In this document: piece by piece, positions 29,059 through 61,608 of the stretch
Position numbering within the stretch: position 1 is the first letter of the stretch
Layout: every line of letters begins with the position of its first letter
NCBI GenBank assembly: GCA_963725075.1
Contig: CAVRXA010000026.1
Location: 110,288-174,287, forward strand
Direction of reading: 5' to 3'
Length of the DNA: 64,000 bases
DNA from: an uncultured Acidobacteriota bacterium
Lineage (GTDB): Bacteria; Actinomycetota; Acidimicrobiia; Spongiisociales; ZC4RG35
Made by a program: the position numbers and the translations under genes
Notes under the pieces: model-generated
The model's database searches: none
What the model was told of the DNA's origin: nothing
What the model saw: the letters and a program-made list of their open reading frames with translations, nothing else

Positions 29059-29491
29059 TCTCCAACAAGATCGTCACCGGGCCGGAGTTGACCAGCTCCA
29101 CATTCATCGACGCCCCGAACACACCGGTCTCGACGTGGATGCCCGTGCCGCGCAGCACCTCCACGAAGCGATCGACCAACGCCTCGGCCTGTTCTGGTGG
29201 GGCCGCCCCGACGAATGACGGTCGTCGTCCCTTACGGAGGTCACCGAGAAGCGTGAACTGACTCACGACCAGAGCCGAGCCTCCGGTCTCGAGGAGCGAT
29301 CGGTTCATCTGCCCTGCCTCGTCAGGGAACACCCTGAGATGGGCAACCTTCTCCACGGCGCGCGTCATGTCGTCCTCCGTGTCCGAGGGCTCGATGCCGA
29401 CGAGAAGGAGGAACCCGGAATCGATCGAGCCGACCTCGACGCCATCGACATCGACCGAGGCCCGGGTCACACGTTGCACCACGATCCGCAC
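29036..29491 (-). CDS. dtd: D-aminoacyl-tRNA deacylase
   Basis: MRIVVQRV...VSQFTLLGD...GRRPSF...NSGPVT motifs. Length 151 aa. Its 3' end overlaps plsY by 23 nt (convergent). Confidence 0.9.
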   Translation of the reverse strand: MRIVVQRVTRASVDVDGVEVGSIDSGFLLLVGIEPSDTEDDMTRAVEKVAHLRVFPDEAGQMNRSLLETGGSALVVSQFTLLGDLRKGRRPSFVGAAPPEQAEALVDRFVEVLRGTGIHVETGVFGASMNVELVNSGPVTILLEIRDGRVT

Positions 29492-29526
29492 GGGAGGCGA
29501 TTGTGGCAGCCCAATAGAGTGGTGCC

Positions 29527-31800
29527 GTGGCGAGGAAGTCGGCCGATCCCCCAGAATTGCTAAGCGGTCCGGCCGACTCGCGGGTCGTCTACCTGCTCGA
29601 CGCCGCCTCCGACTACGAGGCCTCCCTCCTCACCCGATGGGCCGGGGAGGAGATCGGTCGCGAGGTCGAGACGGTCAGGATCACGTCGTCGCGCCGGGGA
29701 AAGGGTGGTGACATCGAAGCCCTGATCGATGCCCTGGCCGCTGCTGACGACCCCTTCCTGATACCGCTTCGCGTCCTCTGGCTGGCACCGATCAAGAAGG
29801 GTCGTCGGGCCGTCAGCTGGTGGGACATGTTGCGACCCGGGGACGCCAGGGATCCGAGAGGGGTAAGGGCGAGATGGGTCCGAATGGCCCGTCCGGGGCG
29901 GATTCGATTCACCGCCGCCGCCGGAGCACATGCCTCGGACCTCGCCGATGACTATCAGGCCTCGGGCCAGGTGGACCCGTTGTCCAACTACGTGACCAGG
30001 AGAGCCTGGCTCATCCTCGACCGGGCCGAGCGGAGGCTCGTGGGCAACCGTTACAAGATCCCCCGGTTCGTGCCGGAGGCCATCCTCTCCCGCCGGGAGT
30101 TTCTCGAGGCGGTGGACGCCGTCGCCGCCGAGACCGACATGCCCCCGGCCCTGGCACGCGAAAAGGCGGAGCGGTATCTCCGGGAGATCGCTGCCACCCA
30201 CTCGCCGTACGTGATCGACCTGATCGCCAACGGCATCCACAAGCTCTACAGCCAGGGCTACGGCGACATCAAGTACTCGGAAGACGACGTCCGGCGTCTC
30301 GCCGCCCTGGGCGATGGCGACCCGATCATCTTCCTACCCGCCCACCGTTCGAATCTCGACCGTCTCAGCCTCCAGTTCATGCTCTGGGAGAACGATTTTC
30401 CGCCCAACCACACGGCGGGTGGCATCAATCTGAACTTCTTCCCGGTCGGGCCGCTCGTCCGACGCACCGGTGTGTTCTTCATCCGCCGCTCCTTCAAGGA
30501 CAACCCTCTCTACAAGATGGTCCTGCGCTCGTATCTGGACTATCTGGTCGAGAAGCGATTCCCCCTCGAGTGGTACATGGAAGGCGGGCGGTCGCGCTCG
30601 GGGAAGCTGATGCCTCCACGTCTAGGGCTCCTGAGCTACGTGGCGGATTCCATGCACCGGGGCAAGGCAGAGGACCTCCAGTTGGTCCCGGTGTCCATCG
30701 CCTACGACCAGATCCAGGACGTCCCCGACTATGCCCGCGAGGCGCAGGGGAAGGACAAGGAGAAGGAATCCCTCGGATGGATGCTGAAGGCGGTGCGGTC
30801 ACTGCGGCGGCGATACGGCGACATCCACATCCGGTTCGGGGAGCCTGTCTCGGCGCGGAGCATGGTCGGACCAGCCGACCTCGGCGAGGAGACGTCCATC
30901 GGGCTGCAGAAACTGGCCTTCGAGGTGATGTATCGGATTGCACATGTCACCCCGATCACCCCGACCGCCCTCATAAGTGTCGCCCTCCTCGCGGCGAGGG
31001 GAACTGCCCGGTCATCAGATCAACTGGCCGAGGGTGCTGCCCGGCTCGTGGAGTTCGCCCGGGCCCGCGACCTCCCCACCACCGAGGATTCAGATCTGCG
31101 CGACCCGTCACGGGTGGCCACCATCCTCGACTGGCTCGCCGAGCACGACAACGTGAGCAGTCACGAGGCCCTCGGGCGGCGGGTCTTCTGGCTCGACGAG
31201 GACCAGATGATTCGGATCTCGTACTACCGCAACATGATCGTTCACTTTTTCGTCAATCGGGCCCTGGCCGAGATGGCGATCGGCTCTGCGGCCGAGACCG
31301 GCGAGGAGCGGCCGGAACAAGTGAGGAAAGCGCTTCTCGCCTACCGCGACCTGCTCAAGTTCGAGTTCTTCTTCCCCGAAAAGGACCAGTTCCTCGCCGA
31401 CGTCGATTCCGACATCGTCATCGACGTCCCCGGTTGGGAGCATGTTCTGACCACGACGGGGTCGGCCGAGGTGCAGGCCAAGCTGGGGCCACCGCTGGCC
31501 TACTGGGCCGTGCTGCCGATCCTCGACGCCTATCAGGTGGTAGGTGACGAGCTGGAAAACCTCAAGGGCCGATTTGAAGAGAAGTCCTTTCTCAAGGCGT
31601 GTCTCGCCCGGGCCCGCATGTATCGGATCGAGGAGCGGCTCATCTCGGGCGAGAGCGCCAGCCAGGTCCTCTTCAAGTCGGCGCTGTCCCTTGCCGCCAA
31701 CCGGGGCCTGGTCGATGACGCCGACGGTGTGGCCGCCCGCCGCGCCGCCTTCGCAACCGAGGTCCGCAACGCCCGGACGCTCGCCGCCGCCGGTTTGTAG
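29527..31800 (+). CDS. plsB: glycerol-3-phosphate acyltransferase PlsB
   Basis: HXXXXD motif PAHRSNLD, then GPLVRRTGVFFIRRSF and EGGRSRSGK blocks. Length 757 aa. The start is uncertain because it lies only 35 nt from the divergent dtd start. Confidence 0.85.
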   Translation: MARKSADPPELLSGPADSRVVYLLDAASDYEASLLTRWAGEEIGREVETVRITSSRRGKGGDIEALIDALAAADDPFLIPLRVLWLAPIKKGRRAVSWWDMLRPGDARDPRGVRARWVRMARPGRIRFTAAAGAHASDLADDYQASGQVDPLSNYVTRRAWLILDRAERRLVGNRYKIPRFVPEAILSRREFLEAVDAVAAETDMPPALAREKAERYLREIAATHSPYVIDLIANGIHKLYSQGYGDIKYSEDDVRRLAALGDGDPIIFLPAHRSNLDRLSLQFMLWENDFPPNHTAGGINLNFFPVGPLVRRTGVFFIRRSFKDNPLYKMVLRSYLDYLVEKRFPLEWYMEGGRSRSGKLMPPRLGLLSYVADSMHRGKAEDLQLVPVSIAYDQIQDVPDYAREAQGKDKEKESLGWMLKAVRSLRRRYGDIHIRFGEPVSARSMVGPADLGEETSIGLQKLAFEVMYRIAHVTPITPTALISVALLAARGTARSSDQLAEGAARLVEFARARDLPTTEDSDLRDPSRVATILDWLAEHDNVSSHEALGRRVFWLDEDQMIRISYYRNMIVHFFVNRALAEMAIGSAAETGEERPEQVRKALLAYRDLLKFEFFFPEKDQFLADVDSDIVIDVPGWEHVLTTTGSAEVQAKLGPPLAYWAVLPILDAYQVVGDELENLKGRFEEKSFLKACLARARMYRIEERLISGESASQVLFKSALSLAANRGLVDDADGVAARRAAFATEVRNARTLAAAGL

Positions 31801-31808
31801 CGAACCAC

Positions 31809-32304
31809 TCAACGCGGTCTATTCCACTTCTTGCGCGCCTCGTCGATCAGCTGGCGCGAGGTCTTCGGCTCGGGAGGTACCAGCGGTGGGGGGAGGTCGG
31901 CAGGGTCCACGGCTGGAGTCTCCGTCGGCGCCGGGACAGGCTTTGGCGCCGACCTGACCGGTGGGGGTGGAGGCGGAATTGGCGCCGGGGGCATTTCCGT
32001 CTGTGACGATTCGATCCGGATGGTTGGCACCCGCTTCTCGGTTGGGCCGGGCACCGGAGCCGGGGCGACCGGCTCGATTTGCGTCTCCATGGTGCGGGCC
32101 CGGCGGCGCAGGGCGCGACCGGCCCACAAGAGCAGGACACCAGGGATGGCACTCCCAAACGCACCGGCGAAGAAACCCTCGCTGATACCCACGTCCGGAG
32201 ACCAGGCCAATTCCTGCCAACACGAGGAAGCCGAGCCACAGTGTCCCGAGGATGGTGAGGACCCGCCCCAGACATCCGACTGGATTGATGTTCTGATCAG
32301 CCAC
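31809..32304 (-). CDS. membrane-anchored proline-rich protein (possible +1 frame break near 32197)
   Basis: The C-terminal 130 aa (frame of ORF 31809..32318) has one TM helix and a PAPxP-rich tail. A second TM-like helix (VLTILGTLWLGFLVLAGIGLV) is encoded just upstream in the frame of ORF 31819..32304. Alternatively there is a GTG start near 32190. Confidence 0.45.
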
Positions 32305-32321
32305 CGATGTTCATTCAAACA

Positions 32322-33492
32322 TCAGGGCCGGGTCAGCACCGCCCGAAGCCGCCAGGCGGCAAGCAAGAGCAGAACGGTGGCGTAGACGACGAGAACACCG
32401 AGCTCGGGGAGGATGTCGGCCACGGTCCCATCCCGGCGGACTAGCTCGGCGAACCCGTCGAGCGCCCATGCGTGCGGCGTGAGATGCGCAACCCGGGTCA
32501 TCGCCGGGGAGAACAGCTCGATCGGGAGCATGCACCCGCCGAGGGCCGCCAGCCCGAGACTGAGGACGACACCGATTCCGCCGGCCTGCTGGTCGTTCTT
32601 GAAGGTCGCCCCCATCAGCATCCCCGCTCCGGCCCCGACTGCGGAGAAGGCCACCAGGATGAGAAGAGCACCCCATGGGTCCCCCCAATCGACCCGGAAC
32701 AGCAGGTAGGTCACGATCACGATGTAGAGACCCTGGACCATGGCCACCGCCCAGCGCCCGGCGCCTTCGCCGCCCACGATCGTCCCCGTGGAGGTCGGGG
32801 TGGAGAGCATGCGGCGTGAGATGCCGAGCTTCCTGCTGAGGATCAGGGCGGCGGACCCGGCGAGGGCCGTCAGAAAGGTGAACAGGACGAGTTGCTGCGC
32901 CGCATCCGAGGTCGAACCGGCCAAGAGTCGAGGGGAAGAGGGCCTCTCCGACCGCAGTGGTCTCGACATCGAGCCCGGGGGCGGCATCGGTCTGCGACCT
33001 CGCCACATCGAGAGCCTCGTCGAAGCTGGCCCCAGCTTTCTCGGCACCAAACTGGGCGGCGCCCACCGGCGTCATGACACGGGCCACGCCTGGCGCTGAC
33101 GACCGACTGCAGTTGCGGGCCGGCCCCGTCGGGTCTGGCCACGAATCCCACCTCGACCTGCTCGCCGGATTCGGCAAGATCACTGGCCCCCGCCGGAATG
33201 AACACACCGGCCTGGACGCCACCTCGCTCGACGGCGTCGAGCAATTCGTCCCGGGTCTCGAAGATCGTCACCGCCAACGAGTCGTCGCTCTGGATCTCTT
33301 CGGTGATGGCCGTCGCCAGCGGGTCCTCGTCCTCATGGTGGATCCCGACGCCCGGGATCGAAGTCACCTCCGAACTGGGCGCCGATGAGGAGGATCAGGG
33401 CGATCGGGAAAGATGAAGACGAAGAAGATGTTGGAGCGCTCACGCAACATGCGACGCACGTTGGAGGCGGCGATGGCGAGGATCTTCCTCAT
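32322..33492 (-). pseudogene. ABC-2 type exporter permease, second copy, with about 4 frame breaks
   Basis: The protein text continues across four frames: MRKILAIAASNVRRMLRERSNIFFVFIFP / IALILLIGAQFGG / VTSIPGVGIHH...QSVVSA / VARVMTPVGAAQFGAEK...GRFD / AAQQLVLFTFL...HAWALDGF... Breaks are near 33405, 33368, 33090 and 32910, and all are +1. Confidence 0.7.
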
Positions 33493-34675
33493 CGGGTCAG
33501 CTTCCTCTGCAGGAGCACCCAGGCCACCGTCCCGAAGACGAGGGTGAACAGCAGCAGAGCGCCAACTGCCGGCAGATACTTCGGTCCACTCCGCACCACC
33601 TGATATGGTCGGAAAGACCACGCATGAACCAGGCGTGCGGTGTCAGGTAGGAGAGTCTGGCCAGGAAGTCGTTGCCCTGGCCGATCGGGAAGAAGGTCCC
33701 GCCCAGCATCCCCAGGATCACGGCGACGATCGCCCCGAGGTTGGCGGCGCCATCGGCACTGGTGGCGGTGGCGGCGATCACCCCCATGATGGAGGTGGCG
33801 GCAAGGACGCCGGCGATCGACCAGCAACGCCACCCCCAGAGGGCGGGCCCCACTCCGCATCCATCAGGTAGTGCGTGGCAACGATCAGGACCGTCATCGA
33901 GATGAGACCGAGGGAGAAGGAGAGAATCGCCTTGCCCGCCACCACGCTGGTGTGGCCTGATCGGCGCCGCGAGGAGCCTCGCCAGGGTTCCGCCCTGTTT
34001 CTCCTCGAGGATGCCGACAACGCCGAACTGAACGGTGAAGAAGAGGAAGAACACAGCCATCCCCGCGGCAAAGAACGTGTTGGCGTCGAGTTGCCGGGTG
34101 GCGGCGGAGACATCGACGAAGGTGAAGGCCGGCGGTCGAAGGGCAGCCTCCTCGCCCCAGGAAACCACTTCTTCCGGAGGCGGTCCCTCGCCAAGAGCGA
34201 TCGCCGTGGTCACCGAGAGCTGGGAACGCTCGATGGCCGATCCGAACCCGGAGGCGATCGAGGAAACCACCTGGGTCGTGGTCTGGCTGTCGACGTCGCC
34301 GACGACCTCGATCGTGAATGGCTGGGCCTGGATCGCAGCGTCGCCCAGACCGGCGTTGAGGAGGATGTAGGCACCGATCTCGCCCTCTTCGACCGACGCC
34401 TCGGCCGAGGCGGCGTCGTCGAAGTCGGTCACGACCAGGATCCCCTCGGCTTCCATCCCGGAGAGCGCCTCGCCCAGGGACTGCGACACCTGGGTTTGGT
34501 CCAGATCGACCAATCCCACCTCGAGATCCAGGCTTTCGGCGGTGAACGTGTCGCCGAAGACGAGATGGAAGATGTAGGCCAGAGCGAGCGGCGTGATGAT
34601 CCCCATGATGAAGAAGGACCGATCACGGACCCGGAGCTTGAGGTCCTTCCCCGCGATCTGGGTCGCTGCACCCAT
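33489..34675 (-). pseudogene. ABC-2 type exporter permease, first copy, with at least 3 frame breaks
   Basis: The main ORF loses sense after LLAAPIRP. The sequence continues in another frame (SVVAGKAILSFSLGLISMTVLIVATHYLMDAEWG), then PLGVALLV, then returns (IAGVLAATSIMG...HAWFMRGLSD). The C-terminus VVRSGPKYLPAVGALLLFTLVFGTVAWVLLQRKLTR is in the third frame. Breaks are near 33953, 33850, 33818 and 33605. Confidence 0.7.
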
Positions 34676-34677
34676 GA

Positions 34678-35617
34678 TCAGTCGCGCAGGGCCTTGCCGG
34701 TCAGATGGAGAAACACTGCTTCGAGATTGGGCTCCGAGACCGCCACACCGGTGACGTTGGCCCCGGTGGCGGACACCCGGGAGAGCAATTCGGGGAGGAG
34801 TGACGAGGCGTCGTTGGCCAGTACGTCAATGCCCGCAGTCGGCAGGGCTGGCCTCATGGACCGCGGGCAATTCGGCGGCGACTCGGGCCACCTCGACCAG
34901 GTCCCCGGTCACCGTCACCCGGATCCTGTCCTTCTCCCCCACCAGCGACACCAGCTCGCGTCTGGTGCCCTCTGCCTTGATCACGCCCTCGTCGATGATG
35001 GCCACGCGGTCGCAGAGACGCTCGGCCTCTTCCATGTAGTGGGTGGTGTAGAGGACTGCAATCCCCTCGCCCGACAGGTCTTCGACCGACTCGAGGATGG
35101 CGTTCCGGGACTGCGGATCGACCCCGACCGTCGGCTCGTCCAGTATGAGCAGGCGGGGCCGATGGAGCAGCCCGATGCCGATGTTCAGTCTCCGTTGCAT
35201 GCCGCCGGAGAACTCGCTGACGAGGTCGTCCTGGCGCTCGGAGAGACCGATCACCTCGAGCACCTCCTCCACCCGTTTGTCCAGTGTCTCGCCGGGCATG
35301 TCGTAGAGACGCCCGAAGAACCTGAGGTTCTCCGTCGCAGTCAGATCGGGGTAGATGGCGATTTCCTGGGGCACGAGACCGATGTCAGACCGTCCGGCGG
35401 TCGAGTTCGTCCGGATCGGCGTCCCGGCAACGTGGATGGTGCCGTTGTCCGGCTCCAGGAGCCCAGCCACCATCGAGATCGAGGTGGTCTTGCCCGCCCC
35501 GTTGGGCCCGAGGAGCCCGAAGGTCTCCCCCTCCGCGATCTCGAAGCTGACCCCATTCACCGCGATCAGATCACCGAAGCTCTTGATGAGCCCTTGCGCC
35601 GCCAGAACCGTCGTCAT
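34678..35617 (-). pseudogene. ABC transporter ATP-binding protein with one +1 break near 34830
   Basis: GPNGAGKTT, LSGGMQRRL-like SGGMQRRLNIG and LILDEPT are intact. The track ORF stops at 34826, but the +1 frame continues IDVLANDASSLLPELLSRVSATGANVTGVAVSEPNLEAVFLHLTGKALRD to a stop at 34678-34680, 2 nt before the permease ATG. Confidence 0.75.
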
Positions 35618-35663
35618 CTACTCCTCTATGCCGATGCGAGCGGCACCCTACCGATGGTGAGGC

Positions 35664-37034
35664 CTACCGCTGCCGCCTGACCGGGGTGGGCTCGGCGCAG
35701 CAGAACCAACTCTCGGTGAGGCGCGGCGCCGGCGGCGACGCGGGCATGGGCGCCATTTCGACTCCTGCGACCTCACCGATCCTCTCCCGCATGACGAGCA
35801 GCGTGTCGCCGGCCTCCGCCCCGCAATCGGAGGCCTCGGCGGCGATCGAGTCGAGTTCTCCGTGCAATTGCTCCGTGGTCTGATCTGCAAACCGCCACGA
35901 CCAGGTCAGCGATTCCGGCTGGTAGGCGGTCAGGTATGGCTCTACTGCGGGGTGGCTCTCCAGGAGCGACCCCTCGGGGATGAGGAGCTTGATCGACAAC
36001 TGCACCGGGTCAGTCGCCGACCACAGCCGATGATCGTCGATGAAGCTCACTATGCCGGCCACATCGGATCGGGGATGGTCCAGGGGAAGAATGGGAGCCA
36101 GGTCGGCCGTACGTGAATGCCGGCTGTGCGGAGCACTGTCACTGCCTCGGACATGTCCGCCGCTGTGTGGTTCTTGTCGAGCACCTCCAGTGTGTGATGG
36201 TCTGTGCTCTCGAAGGCGCTGACCACGAAGAGAACACCGAGCTCTCCCATCTCCGGCCACAGGTCGCGATGGGCAAGGACGTGCTCGACCTTCACGGTCA
36301 CGTCGAAGGTCAGCTCGGGGTGGGCGCCATGGGCCTGCCTCAACAGGTCCATCGAATACCGCGGCGCGTTGAGAAAGTCGGGATCGCCGAACGTCACATG
36401 CTGGATCCCATCGGCGGCGAGCTGGTCGATGTCCGTCAGCACGGCATCTGCTCCGACCACCCTCATCCTGCCGTCGTAGACGACGGGAATCGGGCAATGA
36501 CGACAGCGGTGCCGGCACCCGTGTGACGCCTCGACGGCCGCGGCAAGACGGGCTTCGCCCATCCATTCGAGACGGGCGTAGTTGTCGTGCCAGGGCAGAA
36601 CCGGATCGCTCGGGCCGGTGGAATCTCGACGAGCCCCTGCTCCGGCTCATGCCGTTTCCTTCACTGCCCGACGCGACGCTCATGGCCCATTCCACGAGAG
36701 CCGGCTCGTACTCGCCGACAAAGACCGAATCGGCGACATCGCCAACCACTCGGTCCTGACCGACACCGGCGTACAGACCGTAAAAGGCGATCGGAAGCCC
36801 GGGCCGCTGGCGGCGCAACTCCCGCGCCATCGGGATGGCAAGACGCATTGCGGTGTGCATCGGCACCGAGAAGGCGACTGCGTCAGCACCGTTCAGACGA
36901 GAGGTGTCCCAGTCCTCCACTGCGAGATCGATGGCGACGACGTCGACCCCGGCCGCGGCCAGTGCAGCCGCCGGAGAGGCGATGTGGACCGGCTGACGCC
37001 CCAGCTCATAGGTGGAGACGAGGAGCAAGCGCAT
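35664..37034 (-). pseudogene. B12-binding-domain radical SAM protein with C-terminal CCAEP tail, two frame breaks
   Basis: The N-terminal domain (MRLLLVSTYELGRQPVH...) and the C-terminus (...SWFCCAEPTPV) are in one frame. The radical-SAM core with CRHRCRHCP (CX3CX2C) is in track ORF 36050..36562. Breaks are near 36600 (+1) and 36070 (-1). Confidence 0.7.
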
Positions 37035-37072
37035 CGAGCCAGTGTATGACCGGCCCCGGTAGCCTTTCGACG

Positions 37073-37957
37073 ATGGGCGACTATGTGAACACCCCCCACG
37101 GACCGATGCACGAGGTCGATTTCGGGGGCACCGGGCCGAGCCTGACACTCATCCACGGTCTCGGTGGATCGACCACCAACTGGAACGCGGTGGCACCGGC
37201 CCTGACCGCAATCGGTCGGGTACGGGCCATCGACCTCCCCGGGTTCGGCCTCACCCCACCACGGTCGGACTTCCGACTCGAGACACATCGCGATTCGGTG
37301 ATCGGCTATCTCGAAACCAAGGACGGGCCCTCCACGCTCATCGGGAACTCGACCGGTGGGCTCCTTGCCGAGTTGATCGCGTCGGCTCGGCCGGACCTCG
37401 TCGATCGGTTGATCCTGGTGTCGCCGGCCACCCCGCCGGTGGTCCCGGACCCACGATTCGACTGGCCCACTGCAGCCCGGCTCGCCATACAGGCCACGCC
37501 CGTCATCGGCGAGGCCTATGGCCGACGATTCCTCCGGACCAACAGCGCCGAGCAGCTGGTGCGGAAGAGCATGAACATGATCACCCACAAGCCGGGGCGG
37601 GTCCCGATGTCCCTCATCGAGGAGTCACGGGAGATGGCCCGGATCCGGAAGCAGCTCCCCTGGGCCCAATACGCCACGGCGCGGACGGCAACCTCGATCG
37701 CACAGCTCTATTCGCGACGGCCCGTGTACGTGAAAATGATCCTCGCCATCGAGGCACCCACCCTGGTGGTGCAGGGGGTTTCGGACCACATCGTCTCGCC
37801 CACGGCAGTCGAGTGGCTCTGCGCCCTCCGGCCCGATTGGGAGCTGGTCCACCTCGACGACACCGGGCACACCCCCCAGATGGACGCCCCTCATCGTTTC
37901 GTCGATGTCGTTCGCAGTTGGCTGACGCGAGCCGAAGACCAGGCGGTGGGTGCGTAG
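37073..37957 (+). CDS. alpha/beta hydrolase
   Basis: HGLGGSTTNW, nucleophile elbow GNSTGG and a C-terminal DTGHTPQMD. The start is trimmed to the ATG at 37073. Confidence 0.8.
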   Translation: MGDYVNTPHGPMHEVDFGGTGPSLTLIHGLGGSTTNWNAVAPALTAIGRVRAIDLPGFGLTPPRSDFRLETHRDSVIGYLETKDGPSTLIGNSTGGLLAELIASARPDLVDRLILVSPATPPVVPDPRFDWPTAARLAIQATPVIGEAYGRRFLRTNSAEQLVRKSMNMITHKPGRVPMSLIEESREMARIRKQLPWAQYATARTATSIAQLYSRRPVYVKMILAIEAPTLVVQGVSDHIVSPTAVEWLCALRPDWELVHLDDTGHTPQMDAPHRFVDVVRSWLTRAEDQAVGA

Positions 37958-38002
37958 AACCTCCTGGGGGGAGAAATACCTCCGCTAACTAGGCTTGGAC
38001 TC

Positions 38003-41901: not shown

Positions 41902-42265
41902 CCAGATCCGGTGGGCCATCCTGGCCCATGCCGAGAATTGCGCCCCGGATGAGTGTTGTGGCCTCCTCGCCATGGACGATGAAGGGCGGCTGCGGTTTGC
42001 CTATCCACTCACCAACGCCGACCCGTCGCCGGTTTCCTACACGATCGACCCCGATGAGCACTTCCGGGCCATGCGGCACGCCGAGTCGATGGGGTGGGAG
42101 ATCGCCGGGGTGTTCCACTCCCACCCCGGTGGGACCGCCATGCCGTCGATGATCGACGTGCAGAGTGCGCTGGAGCCGGACTGGCTCTATCTGGTCGCGG
42201 CCCCGGGCGAGATCCGGAGCTTTCGAATCAGAGCAGGTGCGATCGAGGAGATCGAACTGAGCTGA
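41885..42265 (+). CDS. JAMM/MPN+ metalloprotease (Mec/CysO-peptidase-like)
   Basis: E..CG motif PDECCG and HSHPGGTAMPSMID (HxHx7Sx2D). The GTG start at 41885 overlaps the upstream gene by 17 nt. Confidence 0.8.
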   Translation: MLRLPDQIRWAILAHAENCAPDECCGLLAMDDEGRLRFAYPLTNADPSPVSYTIDPDEHFRAMRHAESMGWEIAGVFHSHPGGTAMPSMIDVQSALEPDWLYLVAAPGEIRSFRIRAGAIEEIELS

Positions 42266-42268
42266 GGA

Positions 42269-42916
42269 TCAGCCCAATGCCGTCGCAGCCATCTCCTCCA
42301 TCTGTTCGTCGGTTATCTCCTGCGACAAGGAGAACAAGACGACAACGGTCTCTCCCTGTCTCGCCACGACATAGCTGATACGGCCAGGACTCGATGAGCC
42401 GAAACGCAGCAGCTTCGTCCCCGATCCCACTCAACTGCCTCAGGCGGGAGATAGGCGCCCTCGGGCGGAAACGACAGCTCATAGCTCTCCGCTCCAGACA
42501 GGACATTGACACCGACGATATCCGCCACCGTCGGCGGTCGAATAGTTGGCGCATGTCCCTCCTGAGCGGCGGCGGTGGCGCCTCTCTCGACTGCCACCAC
42601 GGCCACCCCGGTGATTGCTTCCACGTCGGCCGCCGTGAGTGAGGGGCACTCTGAGGAAGCTGCCTCAGTCCCCAGCGTGGTAGCGACCGTCCCGCTCTCG
42701 GTCGTAGTCGACGGATCGGCCGCTGCTGGTCGAAGCGGCCGGAAGTCGACGTCGACAGTTCGGGAGGCGACAGTGGTCGCGGATCCGGAGTCCCCAGCAC
42801 AGGCAACGGCGAGCAGCAGCCGTCACACACAGAAGCCAGCCGAGATGTCCACGACCTCTCGATCGGGCACCATTCCCTGTGCCCACCTCATCGTCGAGCG
42901 AATGTCGGATTCTCAT
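42269..42916 (-). pseudogene. lipoprotein of unknown function with about 3 frame breaks
   Basis: The signal peptide RSRGRGHLGWLLCVTAAA is in one frame. The lipobox and body (AVACAGDSGSATTV...PPEAVEW) are in a second, GIGDEAAAFRLIE in a third, and the C-terminus ISYVVARQGETVVVLFSLSQEITDEQMEEMAATALG returns to the first. Breaks are near 42815, 42420 and 42385. Confidence 0.55.
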
Positions 42917-43031
42917 CGCGGCCCCCCTCTGGCCGAAACCGATCGATTCCGGCCGTCTTCTCGCATAACCCGTGAGCGCGTCGACAACCGAAGCTATCAG
43001 AGTGATCGACCAGATACCTCTCGACTGAGGA

Positions 43032-43448
43032 TCACACCCAGACGGTGACGATCACCGCCACGATTATGTAGGCGATCACCGCATTGAGCCCGTTGAGCAG
43101 CCAGTACGAAGACCCCTTCTGCTCGTAGATCTGGGTGACCAGGGCGCTCACGACACCGAAGCCCACTCCCAGGGCCCCGCCCAGCGCGACCCCGTCCACC
43201 ACTTCGACGGCGCCAATGCCACGAGCGATGAGCGCGATCACGATCGTGGTCACGAAGTAGCCGACGAGGGTCGGGCCGAAGAGAGATGCCAGCGGCGGGC
43301 CTTCCGTCGTCATGTCGACCTTCGAGGCTTTCTGCCAGGCCTTGCTCAAGGGCGGGACCGAGTACCAAATGGCGCTGAATGCGAACCAGGCGATCGTTGC
43401 CACCACGATCGCCAGCCAGTTCAACTCGCCGAAGAAATCGAAGATCAT
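43032..43448 (-). CDS. DUF1761-like membrane protein
   Basis: 138-aa 4-TM ORF. The NWLAIVVATIAWFAFSAIWYS start is typical of the family as I recall it. Confidence 0.6.
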   Translation of the reverse strand: MIFDFFGELNWLAIVVATIAWFAFSAIWYSVPPLSKAWQKASKVDMTTEGPPLASLFGPTLVGYFVTTIVIALIARGIGAVEVVDGVALGGALGVGFGVVSALVTQIYEQKGSSYWLLNGLNAVIAYIIVAVIVTVWV

Positions 43449-43527: not shown

Positions 43528-44351
43528 TCAGAGATCGATCGCCCGGTTCACCCACACCGACGTGACCTCCATCCCGACCTTTTCGTAGAGGCCGAGGGCA
43601 CCGGTTCGGGAGTCGGTGGAGAGCTCGGACCGGCTGGCTCCATGAGCCCGCGCCTCGGAGAAGGCATCGGCGAGGAGCGCCTGACCCAGACCAAGGCCTC
43701 GCAGGTCCTTTCGAACGGCCAGTTTCTCCACGAACCCGGTGCTGTCGGCGATGAGGATCAACGCCGCTCCGACGACCTCATCCGACTGGTCCGTCACCAC
43801 TCGCAGGTTCCACGGCTCGAAGCCGGGACGCTGCATCACCTGGGCCGAGAAGTCCTCGAAGCTCTGTCGGTCACGCACCGACCATTCCAGGAACGCGTCT
43901 TCGATCACGGACCATGCGGCCCGATGATCTGATTCAGTCGCGGTGCGGATGGTGTAGCCCGGGGGTAGAGGGCGATCTTCGATGTTTCGGCCCTCGGGGA
44001 GGGCCAGCACCCAGCTGGTCCAGCGAACTCGATAGCCGAGACCCTCGAGCAGCCGGTCGCCGGGTGAGCCTTCGGCACCGGCATCCCGATCGTCTCCAGA
44101 CCACGGCCTCGGGCATGATCCTGCATCCAGGCGGCGAGATAGGTGCCGATCCCACGCCCCCGGTAGTCGGGATCGACGGCGGCGTCCGCCCTGTCACCAC
44201 CCGAGAGCTCGGCGTAGGCCACCAACCGGTCATCGTCGAAGATGCCGATGGTGCTGGCCGAGACGTCATAGCTCGGACGCTGCCAATCGCTGACGATGTC
44301 GGCCTCCTCGATGACGACTTCGCCGATGTCAGCCAGCTGCCCGGCGGCCAT
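43528..44351 (-). pseudogene. tandem-GNAT N-acetyltransferase with one frame break near 44070
   Basis: The N-terminal GNAT domain (VDPDYRGRGIGTYLAAWM) is in ORF 43905..44351 and the C-terminal one (VRKDLRGLGLGQALL) in ORF 43528..44010. My translation joins ...GLETIGMPVP to GSPGDRLLEGLGYRVRWTSWVLALPEGR after a -1 shift. Confidence 0.7.
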
Positions 44352-44543
44352 GACGGCGGCAACCGCTGACTCGTCGCCCGGGGCGAGCGAGCGCGATGGA
44401 AAGGCCAGGTGGCAGTGTCCATCGCGATATTGAAGCCGGGATGGAGGACCACGGAGGGCGAATTACGAACCCCGGCTCCAACGGCAGGCTGCGGGACGCA
44501 AGATAGAAGAAATCTACGACGTACCACTTGTTTCTGTCACTGG

Positions 44544-45992: not shown

Positions 45993-46848
45993 CTAACCCG
46001 CGTCGCCGACCAGGCCCAATTCGTGGCGGAACAGATACCTGTCGGCCAGGTAATTGAGGATGCGTCTCGCCTCGGTGAAGCGGTCGGCGACAGTGCGCAG
46101 GAAAGTCGGGCCGGTCGAGATCGCTGCCATTGCACTCGTCCACCGAGCGCCGATACCAGCCGGCTCCCGCCACCTCCATGAAATGCAGGGCCTGCTCCTC
46201 GACGAGAGCCTCGGTGGGGCCGAGCACCGCCGATTGGGCCAGCCACTCCCGTTGGGAAGGTGTGTAGGGATGCCTGGCCGTGTGGTCGGGCATCACGCCA
46301 CTCAGGAACAGGGCGACATCGCCTAGTCGTCGGTATCCACCCGGTCTCTCCGCCGGTGGCAAGAGCTCGACCATCTCGGCGAGGGCGACCGGGTCGAGTT
46401 CGCTAAACCGCTTGCGTCGTAGACCATCGCGGGTCTGCACCACGAAGCTGCCGCTGGCAACGGTTGTGAACGAGTTGAGGATTTCGATGAGGAAGTAGCG
46501 ACGTGCTCCGTCATCGAGGAAATGGCGCAGCGGCTCGACGTCGAAGATGGGAAGGCGCTTTCCGGGCGCTGCCCACTCCGGGACGTAACTGGCGTCCTGC
46601 AGATCGCTCGCCGATCGGTTGACCAGAGCGGCGAAGGCCAGGAATGAGGACGCCCCCGGCTCGGCGAGATCGCTGGAGCCATCGAAGATCGTGTCGAAGA
46701 GGCGGCGAGACGCCAGAAGCTCGTCGATCACCTCGGGGCGTTCCAGCATCCGCTGCTTCAAGGCCTCGCCACCGGTACCGGCGGTCTGTGCCAGCAGCTC
46801 GAAGTCCCCTTGGCTGAGATGCTCCAGATAGAGCAGTGGATAGTTCAT
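45993..46848 (-). pseudogene. conserved hypothetical protein with one +1 frame break near 46131
   Basis: The track ORF becomes Arg/Pro-rich after GWYRRSVDE. The +1 frame continues MAAISTGPTFLRTVADRFTEARRILNYLADRYLFRHELGLVGDAG to a stop at 45993-45995. Confidence 0.6.
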
Positions 46849-59838: not shown

Positions 59839-60700
59839 CTACGTTCTACGTCTTACGACACCGTTGGAGAGCACCGTTGCGCCTCGCTCCTTGGCCGTAG
59901 CGGTCACCACTATCTGGTCGCCATCGTCCCAAATCGAGCTGACCAGCGTCTCCCCCGGGTAGACGACGCCCGAGAAGCGGGCCCGAAACGAGGCCACCGC
60001 ATCGGACCGTCCGTCGAGGACATGGTCGACCACCGCCTTGCACACGATCCCGTAGGTGCACAACCCGTGCAGGATCGGACGATCGAAGCCGGCGAAGGCG
60101 GCGAATCCGGGGTCTGCATGGAGCGGGTTCTTGTCCCGCGATGCCATCCGGTAGAGCAGTGCCTGCTGGGGGAGAGTGACCGACTCGACGACGTGGTCGG
60201 GATCCCGCGATGGCCTGAGATCGGTCGTCGATGGGCCGCTGTCCCCACCGAAGCCCGCCCTCTCCCCTGATGAAGATCGACGCACGATTGGTGAACAGCG
60301 GCTTGCCGGTTTTCTCCAGGACGGAAACGATCTCGACGACTGCCAGTGCTCCCTTTCCTTTATCCAGGATCTCGATGACGCTGCCGGTCTGGATCACCGC
60401 CCCGCTGGTCGGGATCGGCTCGTGGATCACGATCTCATGCTCCCCGTGGAGGATCATCGCCGGGTTGATATCGAATCCAGGGGCGTATCCCACGCTCATC
60501 ATCACCGGGAATTGGGGGATGGATGCGTATGTGGGGAGAACACGTAGGTCGCCCTCATAGGCGTAGCGCAACTCACCCGGGTCGGTGGGCGGCACGCCGG
60601 CGCCAACGCCCAGGTGATAGAGGATGATGTCGTCCTCATCCCAGACGGCGGTCCCTCCGGCGAGCTCCGCCCCGATGGCTTTCTCGAGATCGATCGGCAT
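59839..60700 (-). pseudogene. double hot-dog MaoC-like (R)-specific enoyl-CoA hydratase with one +1 frame break near 60253
   Basis: The N-terminal hot-dog domain is in ORF 59846..60700 up to ...IFIRGEGG. The sense then continues in ORF 59839..60285 (FGGDSGPS...YRMASRDKNPLHADPGFAAFAGFDRPILHG). Confidence 0.75.
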
Positions 60701-61608
60701 CAGCCGCCTGCCAGACGGGCGAGGATCATCAGTTCCTCGTTGATATCCCCCGGGATCAAATACTCGGTGACATCGCGGATCTCATCGAGGTGCTCCACGA
60801 GGTCCTCGACCGTGGGCACCACGCCCTGGCCGGCGAACCACCCGGAATTGGTGCCGATGAAGACCCGGCCGTATCTGCCCCCGCCGACCGTGAAGATCTC
60901 GTGGGTGTGCTCGTTCTGCTCAGAGCAGAGATAGACGACCATCGGCATCACCTGCTGAGGGTCGAGCATCTCGACGAACGGGCCGAGGATGTCCTCGGTC
61001 ATCCGGGTGCGGGCAGTGGGCGCGACCGCATTCGACTTGATGTTGTACTTCGCGCCTTCGATCGCGAGCACGTTGGACAGACCAACCAGCCCGGCCTTGG
61101 CCGCGCCGTAGTTGGCCTGGCCGAAGTTGCCGAAGAGACCGGAGGCCGAGCTCGTGTGGACGAACCGGCCGTATCCCCGTTCCTTCATCTGCTTGAAGGC
61201 CGGATGCGACACGTGGAAAGCACCCTTGAGGTGCACATCGAGGACCGCATCGACCTCATCGAGGGTCATGTTGGCGAACGACTTGTCCCTGAGGATCCCC
61301 GCGTTGTTGATCACGATGTCGACCGACCCGAAGGCATCAAGGGCAGTCTGGATGATGCCCTCGCCGCCCTCGCGAGTGGCAACCGAGTCGTAGCTGGCCA
61401 CCGCCTCACCTCCGGCGCCCTTGATCTGATTCACCACCACGTCGGCAGCGGAATGCGACGAGCCGCTGCCGTCTACTGCGCCCCCCAGGTCGTTGACCAC
61501 GACCATGGCTCCCCGTCGCCCCAGCTCGAGGGCGTACTCCCTGCCCAGGCCCCCACCGGCCCCGGTGACCACAGCCACCCGCCCATCGAACGTGATTGGC
61601 TCAGCCAT
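60700..61608 (-). CDS. SDR-family 3-hydroxyacyl-CoA dehydrogenase-like oxidoreductase
   Basis: VTGAGGGLGREYA, NNAG and the YGAAK catalytic motif. Length 302 aa. Its stop shares one nucleotide with the downstream MaoC start. Confidence 0.82.
   Translation of the reverse strand: MAEPITFDGRVAVVTGAGGGLGREYALELGRRGAMVVVNDLGGAVDGSGSSHSAADVVVNQIKGAGGEAVASYDSVATREGGEGIIQTALDAFGSVDIVINNAGILRDKSFANMTLDEVDAVLDVHLKGAFHVSHPAFKQMKERGYGRFVHTSSASGLFGNFGQANYGAAKAGLVGLSNVLAIEGAKYNIKSNAVAPTARTRMTEDILGPFVEMLDPQQVMPMVVYLCSEQNEHTHEIFTVGGGRYGRVFIGTNSGWFAGQGVVPTVEDLVEHLDEIRDVTEYLIPGDINEELMILARLAGG

Follow-up and report, generated by a model that had tools for sequence, protein, structure and literature searches.

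At positions 31809-37034 of the window, by which is meant the whole 64,000-nucleotide stretch of DNA that was analysed, lies a five-gene operon in which a radical SAM gene accompanies the components of an ABC-2 exporter. In the following list, frame breaks are given as bases gained (+) or lost (-).

31809-37034, minus strand: five-gene operon, all genes co-directional
35626-37034, minus strand: CCAEP-tail, B12-domain-like radical SAM gene of the NF040546 subclade, ATG start at 37034; +1 at 36602, +2 at 36068-36069, -1 at 35685
35688-35702, minus strand: codons of the C-C-A-E-P tail, TGC TGC GCC GAG CCC, read from the sequence; both cysteine codons are TGC, not TGA
34678-35617, minus strand: DrrA-like ABC ATPase with a TIGR01188 match; +1 at 34836
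33489-34675, minus strand: ABC-2 permease 1 (PF12698/PF01061); +1 at 33957, 33844, 33817, 33608 and 33577
32322-33492, minus strand: ABC-2 permease 2 (PF12698/PF01061); +1 at 33411, 33350, 33091 and 32908
31809-32304, minus strand: Pro-rich membrane protein gene, GTG start; +1 at 32196, and -1 at 32306, just 5' of the start
37058, no strand assigned: intergenic G-run upstream of the radical SAM start, one base shorter than in L081 and L085

The identities assigned in the original prediction, from the radical SAM protein and DrrA-like ATPase to the two ABC-2 permeases and the Pro-rich reading frame, are borne out by family searches, as is its reference to a family with CUAEP/CCAEP tails, which is NF040546; its reading of both tail cysteines as TGC is likewise correct. 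Pieces of the radical SAM protein in two frames match NF040546. The ATPase scores 276 bits against TIGR01188 on its piece and 300.8 bits, over profile positions 1-302 of 302, when read through the break. The Pro-rich protein, for which the family search gave no match, begins with two hydrophobic helices predicted at the N-terminus, continues through a Pro-rich linker and ends in a basic C-terminus that is conserved, and its gene has intact orthologues in L003 and L081. The genes annotated upstream (two UvrD/AddA-type helicase-nucleases, PlsY, Dtd and PlsB) are broadly those that had been named. In all close relatives the operon is syntenic and adjoins plsB, which argues against its earlier description as accessory.

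Distribution of the frame breaks

The breaks were located by the kind of comparison that the original prediction had recommended, a protein-to-DNA alignment that allows for frameshifts, made against the intact orthologues of L003, together with a MAFFT alignment including L081-L085. The latter are five independently assembled JGI metagenome contigs; L001 and L003 are GTDB metagenome-assembled genomes. Compared with the five contigs, the window carries twelve insertions of one base, a single insertion of two bases, and two or three one-base deletions. That all five genes are interrupted, mostly by +1 breaks and four times so in permease 2, had been recognised beforehand, with nearly all positions right and the counts slightly low for the radical SAM gene (two rather than three) and permease 1 (about four rather than five).

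The affected span, 32196-37058, matches the operon almost exactly. In the aligned flanks (29121-31808 and 37059-38000) there are no such indel differences from the relatives, and the 11.8 kb upstream of the operon show no consistent indel against the same comparison data sets. Coding sequence in the operon carries 2.5 indels/kb, 49 times the figure of about 0.05/kb for the rest of the window (binomial p = 3e-12). Within the operon, the density of breaks peaks at 32.9-34.0 kb, a spacing that is only weakly significant (p about 0.01-0.1) and on which uniform neutral decay along the operon was rejected.

A window that is error-ridden throughout was also considered and is true in part: the indels outside the operon are mostly intergenic, with two or three in coding sequence. 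The intergenic ones are ordinary strain variation, and the difference in the G-run at 37058 is probably ordinary length variation. Sporadic single-base indels within coding sequence have broken up genes unrelated to the operon as well, at 44070 and 60253.

The spectrum of the operon indels is strongly skewed and does not look biological, with insertions accounting for 13 of the 15-16 events and more than half of the events non-templated. Homopolymer slippage was rejected as their cause, as most inserted bases are unlike both neighbours and no run of four or more bases is involved at any break. Bacterial pseudogenes typically show a deletion bias, mixed indel sizes and homopolymer slippage; a spectrum of that kind was looked for in the operon, where the events are instead nearly all +1 and mostly non-templated.

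Every extra base is absent from L081-L085, L001 and L003 as well as from Logan contigs of 12 runs from several studies, and all public contigs that cross a break do so without the extra base. The closest of these are nearly identical to the window. One contig (X36) is identical at 109 of 109 positions except for the missing base at 34836; another (X1) has four mismatches in 457 nt and a gap at the same position, and a third (X35) has two mismatches in 126 nt and a gap at 33957-59. In a k-mer search with a 431-nt insertion-bearing stretch the shared fraction was at most 0.20 in every run, from which it follows that no run carries the insertions; across the operon, public runs never share more than 0.21 of its words, compared with 0.46 in the flank. 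Contigs of X1 are 93-97% identical to the window in the indel-rich parts and 98-99% identical both in the flanks and over the indel-poor 34.2-35.0 kb, and by this measure the operon is the locus of greatest strain divergence. The operon frames of L081-L085, L001 and L003 are intact. The original prediction had named uninterrupted frames in reads or in a sister genome as a sign of assembly error, and in sister sequences such frames are what is found at these positions.

Origin of the breaks

The coding sequence that underlies the breaks bears the marks of continued selection. When the indels are ignored, the 1,730 read-through codons contain no stop codon. The dN/dS of the window operon is 0.11, within the range of 0.09-0.13 seen among intact relatives, and the substitutions specific to the window comprise 67 synonymous and 9 non-synonymous changes. 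Its distances to L084 and L085 (0.152 and 0.151) do not exceed those of L081 to the same two contigs (0.167 and 0.161), so that the window branch is not longer. Ratios of indels to substitutions are typically about 1:10. Fifteen neutral indels would therefore be expected alongside at least about 100 non-synonymous changes, together with several stops. A decay signature in the window lineage, whether higher dN/dS, nonsense codons or a faster rate, was sought and not found, and on these comparisons purifying selection on the operon is undiminished.

These observations bear most directly on a real and very recent inactivation, in which about 15 small indels accumulated in the population and turned all five genes into pseudogenes. 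Such an inactivation predicts that the affected span coincides with the operon, as it does; the indels do not extend beyond the transcription unit with its promoter region, the adjacent genes being free of them, and the splits at 44070 and 60253 could mean a genome tolerant of pseudogenes. Against this stand unrelaxed selection, the lack of any stop and an unaccelerated rate, along with a 13:2 bias toward mostly non-templated insertions that is opposite to the deletion bias and homopolymer slippage of bacterial pseudogenes. Moreover, near-identical strains exist without the insertions, and because one polar frameshift would have been enough, 15 events unaccompanied by substitutions would require an indel-only mutational burst. 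Real inactivation is thus improbable, and the recent decay suggested in the original prediction finds no support in the selection measures or in the near-identical strains.

The arrangement of the inserted bases points in another direction. At 10 of the 12 single insertions, the conserved protein can be regained in two ways, by deleting one or the other of two adjacent bases that differ; under the null, a site has a probability of 0.36 of behaving so, giving p = 0.001 for 10 of 12 and p = 0.03 for a strict count of 8 of 12. At all four sites in permease 2, deleting the neighbouring base in place of the inserted one makes a synonymous difference. For 33844 and 33817, one alternative matches the haplotype of L081 and the other that of L084/L085 (12/12), and the window is their exact merge. 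The exceptions are the insertions at 34836 and 33608 and the +2 event. Each of the 10 conforming sites thus looks like a polymorphic position whose two alleles, the inserted base and the one next to it, have been written side by side.

Taken together, the lack of a decay signal, the absence of the breaks from other sequences and the pattern of alleles are characteristic of consensus errors in a metagenome assembly of mixed strains. The one-directional, largely non-templated indels and the sporadic splits at 44070 and 60253 favour the same reading, as does the radical SAM protein, whose read-through score against its family profile (483 bits) equals or exceeds those of intact orthologues (454 and 478). 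It is highly probable that the organism carries an intact five-gene operon and that the frame breaks are errors of the deposited consensus. In the mechanism envisaged, an assembly, probably of long metagenomic reads, would have crossed a locus at which at least two co-occurring haplotypes differ by several percent. Where reads pile up at polymorphic sites, a substitution may be rendered as an insertion plus a deletion; a consensus that retained the insertion and dropped the deletion would leave both alleles adjacent and the frame shifted by +1. Under such an artefact, the concentration of breaks on the operon is accounted for solely by the higher strain divergence there.

Unsupported indels that break reading frames have been documented for long-read metagenome assemblers (10.1101/2025.04.22.649783; PMC12007338). 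The window resembles such errors in strain-mixed Nanopore or PacBio assemblies in its patchy clusters of single-base indels within conserved reading frames, which are missing from independent assemblies, biased toward insertion and densest where co-occurring haplotypes differ. It departs from the documented cases in that the cluster coincides with one operon and in that we infer the link to technology and reads, including the sequencing technology itself and the exact consensus step.

The adjacency of alleles could also have arisen if the extra bases were real scars of recombination, left when a divergent operon allele was imported and the heteroduplex mismatches were cut and then end-joined or filled in so that both alleles remained next to each other. 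Actinobacteria possess NucS/EndoMS and Ku/LigD. The presence of both alleles at most positions, the two sites that merge known haplotypes and the greater divergence of the operon than of its flanks from a co-occurring strain would all be explained, and if true, a single event would have inactivated a whole operon through a mutational outcome undescribed in Actinomycetota. Yet an outcome of this kind is known from no organism, and it would require about a dozen independent double-strand breaks in 5 kb, each repaired as +1; the bases are missing from near-identical strains, and a mixed-strain consensus is expected to give the identical pattern. This explanation is very unlikely. Programmed recoding, whether by +1 ribosomal frameshifting, quadruplet decoding or transcript editing, would fit events that are nearly all +1 and proteins that are perfectly conserved behind the breaks, but can be set aside almost entirely, as the 13 sites share no motif or four-base word, -1 events and a +2 event are present as well, orthologues are encoded by ordinary open frames in all relatives, and a dozen unrelated recoded sites correspond to no known system.

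If the breaks are consensus errors, as we consider highly probable, the locus also serves as a caution, since at face value five pseudogenes and the loss of an accessory pathway would be annotated. The side-by-side pattern of alleles, combined with dN/dS and a relative-rate check, offers a quick test for such artefacts that needs no reads.

The radical SAM family and its predicted function

A profile search with the repaired radical SAM protein, also recommended beforehand, gives a score of 483 bits against NF040546 over profile positions 2-467 of 468, just below the equivalog cutoff of 500 bits. Intact orthologues from Acidimicrobiia score similarly (454 bits for L003 and 478 for L001), whereas a Chloroflexota form with selenocysteine (Sec; L039) reaches 532 bits; on these scores, the shortfall is a trait of the subclade and not the result of damage. 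The CxxxCxxC motif, CRHRCRHC, lies in the middle piece of the protein (PF04055, 44.9 bits), and an N-terminal B12-binding-like domain is detected at a borderline score (PF02310, 31.5 bits versus a cutoff of 32.1). The tail, WFC[C/U]AEPT, is kept in 74 of 80 homologous loci, in about 30 of these with TGA (Sec). Judged by its full-length profile match, the CxxxCxxC motif, the B12-binding-like domain and the WFCCAEPT tail, the window operon belongs, as an unexceptional case, to the NF040546 family of CUAEP/CCAEP-tail radical SAM (seleno)proteins, which is uncharacterised (10.1101/2022.07.06.499078). It differs from family members in other phyla in its neighbours: in this subclade, in Acidimicrobiia, the gene is linked to an ABC-2 exporter, whereas in those phyla it adjoins a NifU-like protein and an L-amino-acid ligase of the ATP-grasp type. 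Adjacency of the radical SAM gene to an ABC-2 exporter is found in about 17 of 80 species, so that the coupling is lineage-specific, and operon linkage was for this reason rejected as a clue to function.

The second-best family match, over nearly all of the protein, is to ArsL (NF040542), at 258.5 bits far under the cutoff of 450 bits. ArsL is a radical SAM enzyme of arsinothricin biosynthesis whose tail binds arsenite and in which a SAM-derived ACP radical forms a C-As bond (10.1101/2024.02.01.577332; PMC8552651). The two proteins share their domain order and a Cys-rich C-terminal tail, but the tail is CCAEP in the window and RCCLKC in ArsL, and neither arsM nor genes of an ars operon occur among the annotated window genes. 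By sequence comparison, ArsL is the nearest characterised relative of the radical SAM protein, which is not itself an ArsL.

The exporter resembles DrrAB-type systems (TIGR01188/TIGR01247; PF12698) in having a DrrA-like ATPase followed by ABC-2 membrane subunits whose first extracytoplasmic loop is large. Unlike those systems, it comprises two different permease genes followed by a conserved Pro-rich membrane protein, and scores fall under the curated cutoffs; the arrangement suggests that the two permeases form a heterodimer. By analogy with ArsL and from the gene context, the Cys-Cys tail probably binds a substrate that is a soft metal or metalloid and that a SAM-derived radical would alkylate, and the exporter probably exports the product or provides self-protection.

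A role as a RiPP maturase with its exporter was rejected. No SPASM-type family is among the family matches of the radical SAM protein, the best of which are small-molecule B12-radical SAM families, and the neighbours in other phyla are the ATP-grasp ligase and NifU-like protein, not precursors. The peptide modification suggested in the original prediction is accordingly unsupported; ArsL, the nearest characterised relative, acts on a small molecule, and no precursor is needed. With its tail of vicinal thiols or Cys-Sec, the family as a whole, beyond its representative in the window, is a reasonable target in the search for new organometallic or organometalloid chemistry.

A radical SAM operon with breaks in every gene

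The minus-strand region 31809-37034 holds five co-directional genes. Breaks in their reading frames were mapped by protein-to-DNA alignment that tolerates changes of frame, together with a MAFFT alignment of window positions 29121-38000 with five JGI metagenome contigs carrying relatives of the operon (L081-L085).

Genes of the operon with their window-specific breaks, further differences, and flanking genes
Gene 1, minus strand: radical SAM protein, NCBIfam NF040546 ("CUAEP/CCAEP-tail radical SAM (seleno)protein"); +1 at 36602, +2 at 36068-69, -1 at 35685
Gene 2, minus strand: DrrA-like ABC ATPase, last 50 residues in a different frame; +1 at 34836
Genes 3 and 4, minus strand: ABC-2 permeases (PF12698, PF01061), each with several breaks; permease 1, +1 at 33957, 33844, 33817, 33608 and 33577; permease 2, +1 at 33411, 33350, 33091 and 32908
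Gene 5, minus strand: Pro-rich membrane ORF; +1 at 32196
32306: additional -1, visible against near-identical contigs
37058: intergenic G-run difference
plsB-side flank: two UvrD/AddA-type helicase-nucleases, plsY, dtd, plsB
Opposite flank: alpha/beta hydrolase, pyruvate dehydrogenase E1 component

In the radical SAM gene, positions 2-132 of the NF040546 profile and the tail are read in one frame and positions 166-327 in another, the CRHRCRHC of the radical SAM core being encoded within the second of these pieces. The tail codons are TGC TGC GCC GAG CCC. Family profile searches returned no match for the Pro-rich ORF. In the same alignments, plsB (29121-31808) and positions 37059-38000 contain zero window-specific indels. 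The same list of indels was recovered independently when contigs from soil and mine-drainage metagenomes were aligned with the window, and the 11.8 kb upstream show no consistent indel against the assembled contigs of those public metagenomes. The frame breaks of the original prediction are thus confirmed by two alignments and by independent contigs, with nearly all of their positions right, and the upstream genes that it described as clean are so; plsY, dtd and plsB are present among them, along with the two helicase-nucleases. Its assignment to a CUAEP/CCAEP-tail family was likewise correct, as was its reading of both tail cysteines as TGC.

Origin of the breaks

Comparison with related sequences makes it highly probable that the breaks arose as consensus errors when a metagenome of mixed strains was assembled, probably from long reads; most likely, the frameshifts do not exist in the organism. 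For long-read metagenome assemblers, ORF-breaking indels without any read support have been documented (10.1101/2025.04.22.649783; PMC12007338). Each single insertion was examined for whether removal of either of two different adjacent bases restores the conserved protein, and at 10 of the 12 both removals do so. In eight cases the change is strictly synonymous and mostly affects a third codon position, and the other two are S/G and V/I polymorphisms found among relatives; the expectation for random insertions is 36% (p = 0.03 for 8/12, p = 0.001 for 10/12). One alternative at 33844 and 33817 is identical in every base to the L081/L082 haplotype, and the other to that of L084/L085. The window sequence at these sites merges the two, neighbouring SNPs having probably been written as an insertion and a deletion, with the insertion alone retained. 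In keeping with such a merge, strain divergence is greatest where indels are frequent: co-occurring strains are 93-97% identical to the window in the indel-rich parts of the operon, compared with 98-99% in the flanks and in the indel-poor 34.2-35.0 kb. That the operon, except at 34.2-35.0 kb, diverges more than its flanks points to either a recombination tract or allelic diversity at this locus.

Uninterrupted frames in sister genomes, which the original prediction had named as a sign of assembly error, are found at the same plsB-adjoining site in two Acidimicrobiia GTDB MAGs (L001, L003) and in L081-L085, the latter with 85-88% nucleotide identity to the window. Much closer strains are available from several soil samples of one study, in which the share of flank 31-mers is high (0.46, 0.39, 0.32 and 0.31), indicating that the strain itself, or one very close to it, occurs there. 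Break-crossing contigs from these samples lack the extra base; across 34836, one contig matches the window at 109 of 109 remaining positions and a second has 4 mismatches in 457 nt, and across 33957-59 a contig has 2 mismatches in 126 nt. None of the data sets compared with the window contains the operon insertions.

That the indels are real, including a small chance that they are mismatch-processing scars following recombination with a divergent allele, is improbable. Only the coincidence of the affected span with the operon is better explained by real decay; an assembly artefact accounts for it solely through the higher strain divergence of the locus. When the frames of the relatives are applied and the window's extra bases ignored, the five genes contain 0 stops in 1,730 codons, dN/dS is 0.11 between the window and L081 (0.09 between the intact L081 and L082), and changes private to the window comprise 67 synonymous and 9 non-synonymous. 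Nor is the window further than L081 from the outgroups L084/L085 (0.152/0.151 and 0.167/0.161, respectively). In bacterial mutation accumulation, the usual ratio of indels to substitutions is about 1:10, so that fifteen neutral indels imply about 150 substitutions, of which about 100 would be non-synonymous and several nonsense; the data leave no room for these. The repaired radical SAM protein scores 483 bits on NF040546, above the intact orthologues of L003 (454) and L001 (478). Insertions make up 13 of the 15-16 events, over half of the added bases are unlike both neighbours, and none lies within a long homopolymer. Such a spectrum is unlike that of bacterial pseudogenes, in which deletions predominate and slippage occurs in runs. 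The recently decayed operon of the original prediction is therefore not supported, as selection is undiminished, the spectrum is insertion-biased, and near-identical strains are free of the insertions. Programmed recoding is rejected, since no sequence context is common to the sites, the relatives encode these genes in plain frames, and events of -1 and +2 also occur.

Family and likely chemistry

In gene content the operon is an ordinary member of a known family, NF040546, described as uncharacterised (10.1101/2022.07.06.499078), and it is probably functional. The second-best family match of the radical SAM protein, and its nearest characterised relative, is ArsL (258 bits, almost full length). 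As a non-canonical member of the radical SAM enzymes, ArsL generates a 3-amino-3-carboxypropyl radical by cleavage of SAM and makes a C-As bond; arsenite is bound by its Cys-rich tail, RCCLKC (10.1101/2024.02.01.577332). The window protein has a CxxxCxxC motif and, in place of RCCLKC, a WFCCAEPT tail. Of 80 homologues, drawn from Acidimicrobiia, Thermoleophilia, Chloroflexota and other groups, 74 conserve this tail. In about 30 of the 80, the second tail cysteine is TGA/selenocysteine, giving C-TGA-AEP (e.g. L021, L039-L043, L045-L046, L048-L050); close Acidimicrobiia relatives of the window have TGC in all cases. Such a vicinal thiol (or thiol-selenol) tail would hold a soft metal or metalloid, which the enzyme would then alkylate.

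Adjacency of the radical SAM gene to a DrrAB-type ABC-2 exporter is confined to near relatives, about 17 of the 80 species. More widespread is a context seen in Chloroflexota, Solirubrobacterales and other Actinomycetota (L020, L025, L039), where an ATP-grasp L-amino-acid ligase (ATP-grasp_4 + LAL_C2) precedes the radical SAM gene and a NifU-like Fe-S protein of about 200-230 aa with a NifU domain accompanies it (also in L049 and L071). These neighbours point away from a modified peptide and towards a small molecule resembling an amino acid; together with ArsL as nearest characterised relative, they leave the earlier peptide-modification idea without support.

Indels elsewhere in the window

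Outside the operon, about 30 other small indels separate the window from the same metagenome runs. A gene map based on codon-position GC places nearly all of them between genes or at gene boundaries, and these are ordinary strain variation. Two others fall within coding sequence (44070 and 60253). Indels within coding sequence have a density of 2.5/kb inside the operon and about 0.05/kb elsewhere (49-fold, p = 3e-12).

At 43531-44462 (minus strand), two overlapping ORFs each carry GNAT domains, the first domain being cut at about 44084; after 44070, a T missing from the window is present in contigs of three runs. The two ORFs are probably parts of a single double-GNAT (MshD-like) gene, interrupted by a sporadic -1 in the window. 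At 59842-60781 (minus strand), an MFE-2 hydratase N-domain and a MaoC hot-dog domain occupy two overlapping frames, and contigs of two runs (X1, X4) are one base shorter at 60253; the two frames probably belong to one double hot-dog hydratase gene that a +1 in the window has divided. A possible third in-CDS case is 46126, where the window exceeds X1 and X4 contigs by one base, which may alter the C-terminus of the minus-strand gene 46105-46848, which has no Pfam match. Finally, 42265-43032 comprises about 770 bp without an ORF supported by codon-position GC. It differs by one base from relatives at 42377 and 42435, one contig joins across 42204-43025, and the stretch may be an insert that varies between strains or else a non-coding gene.
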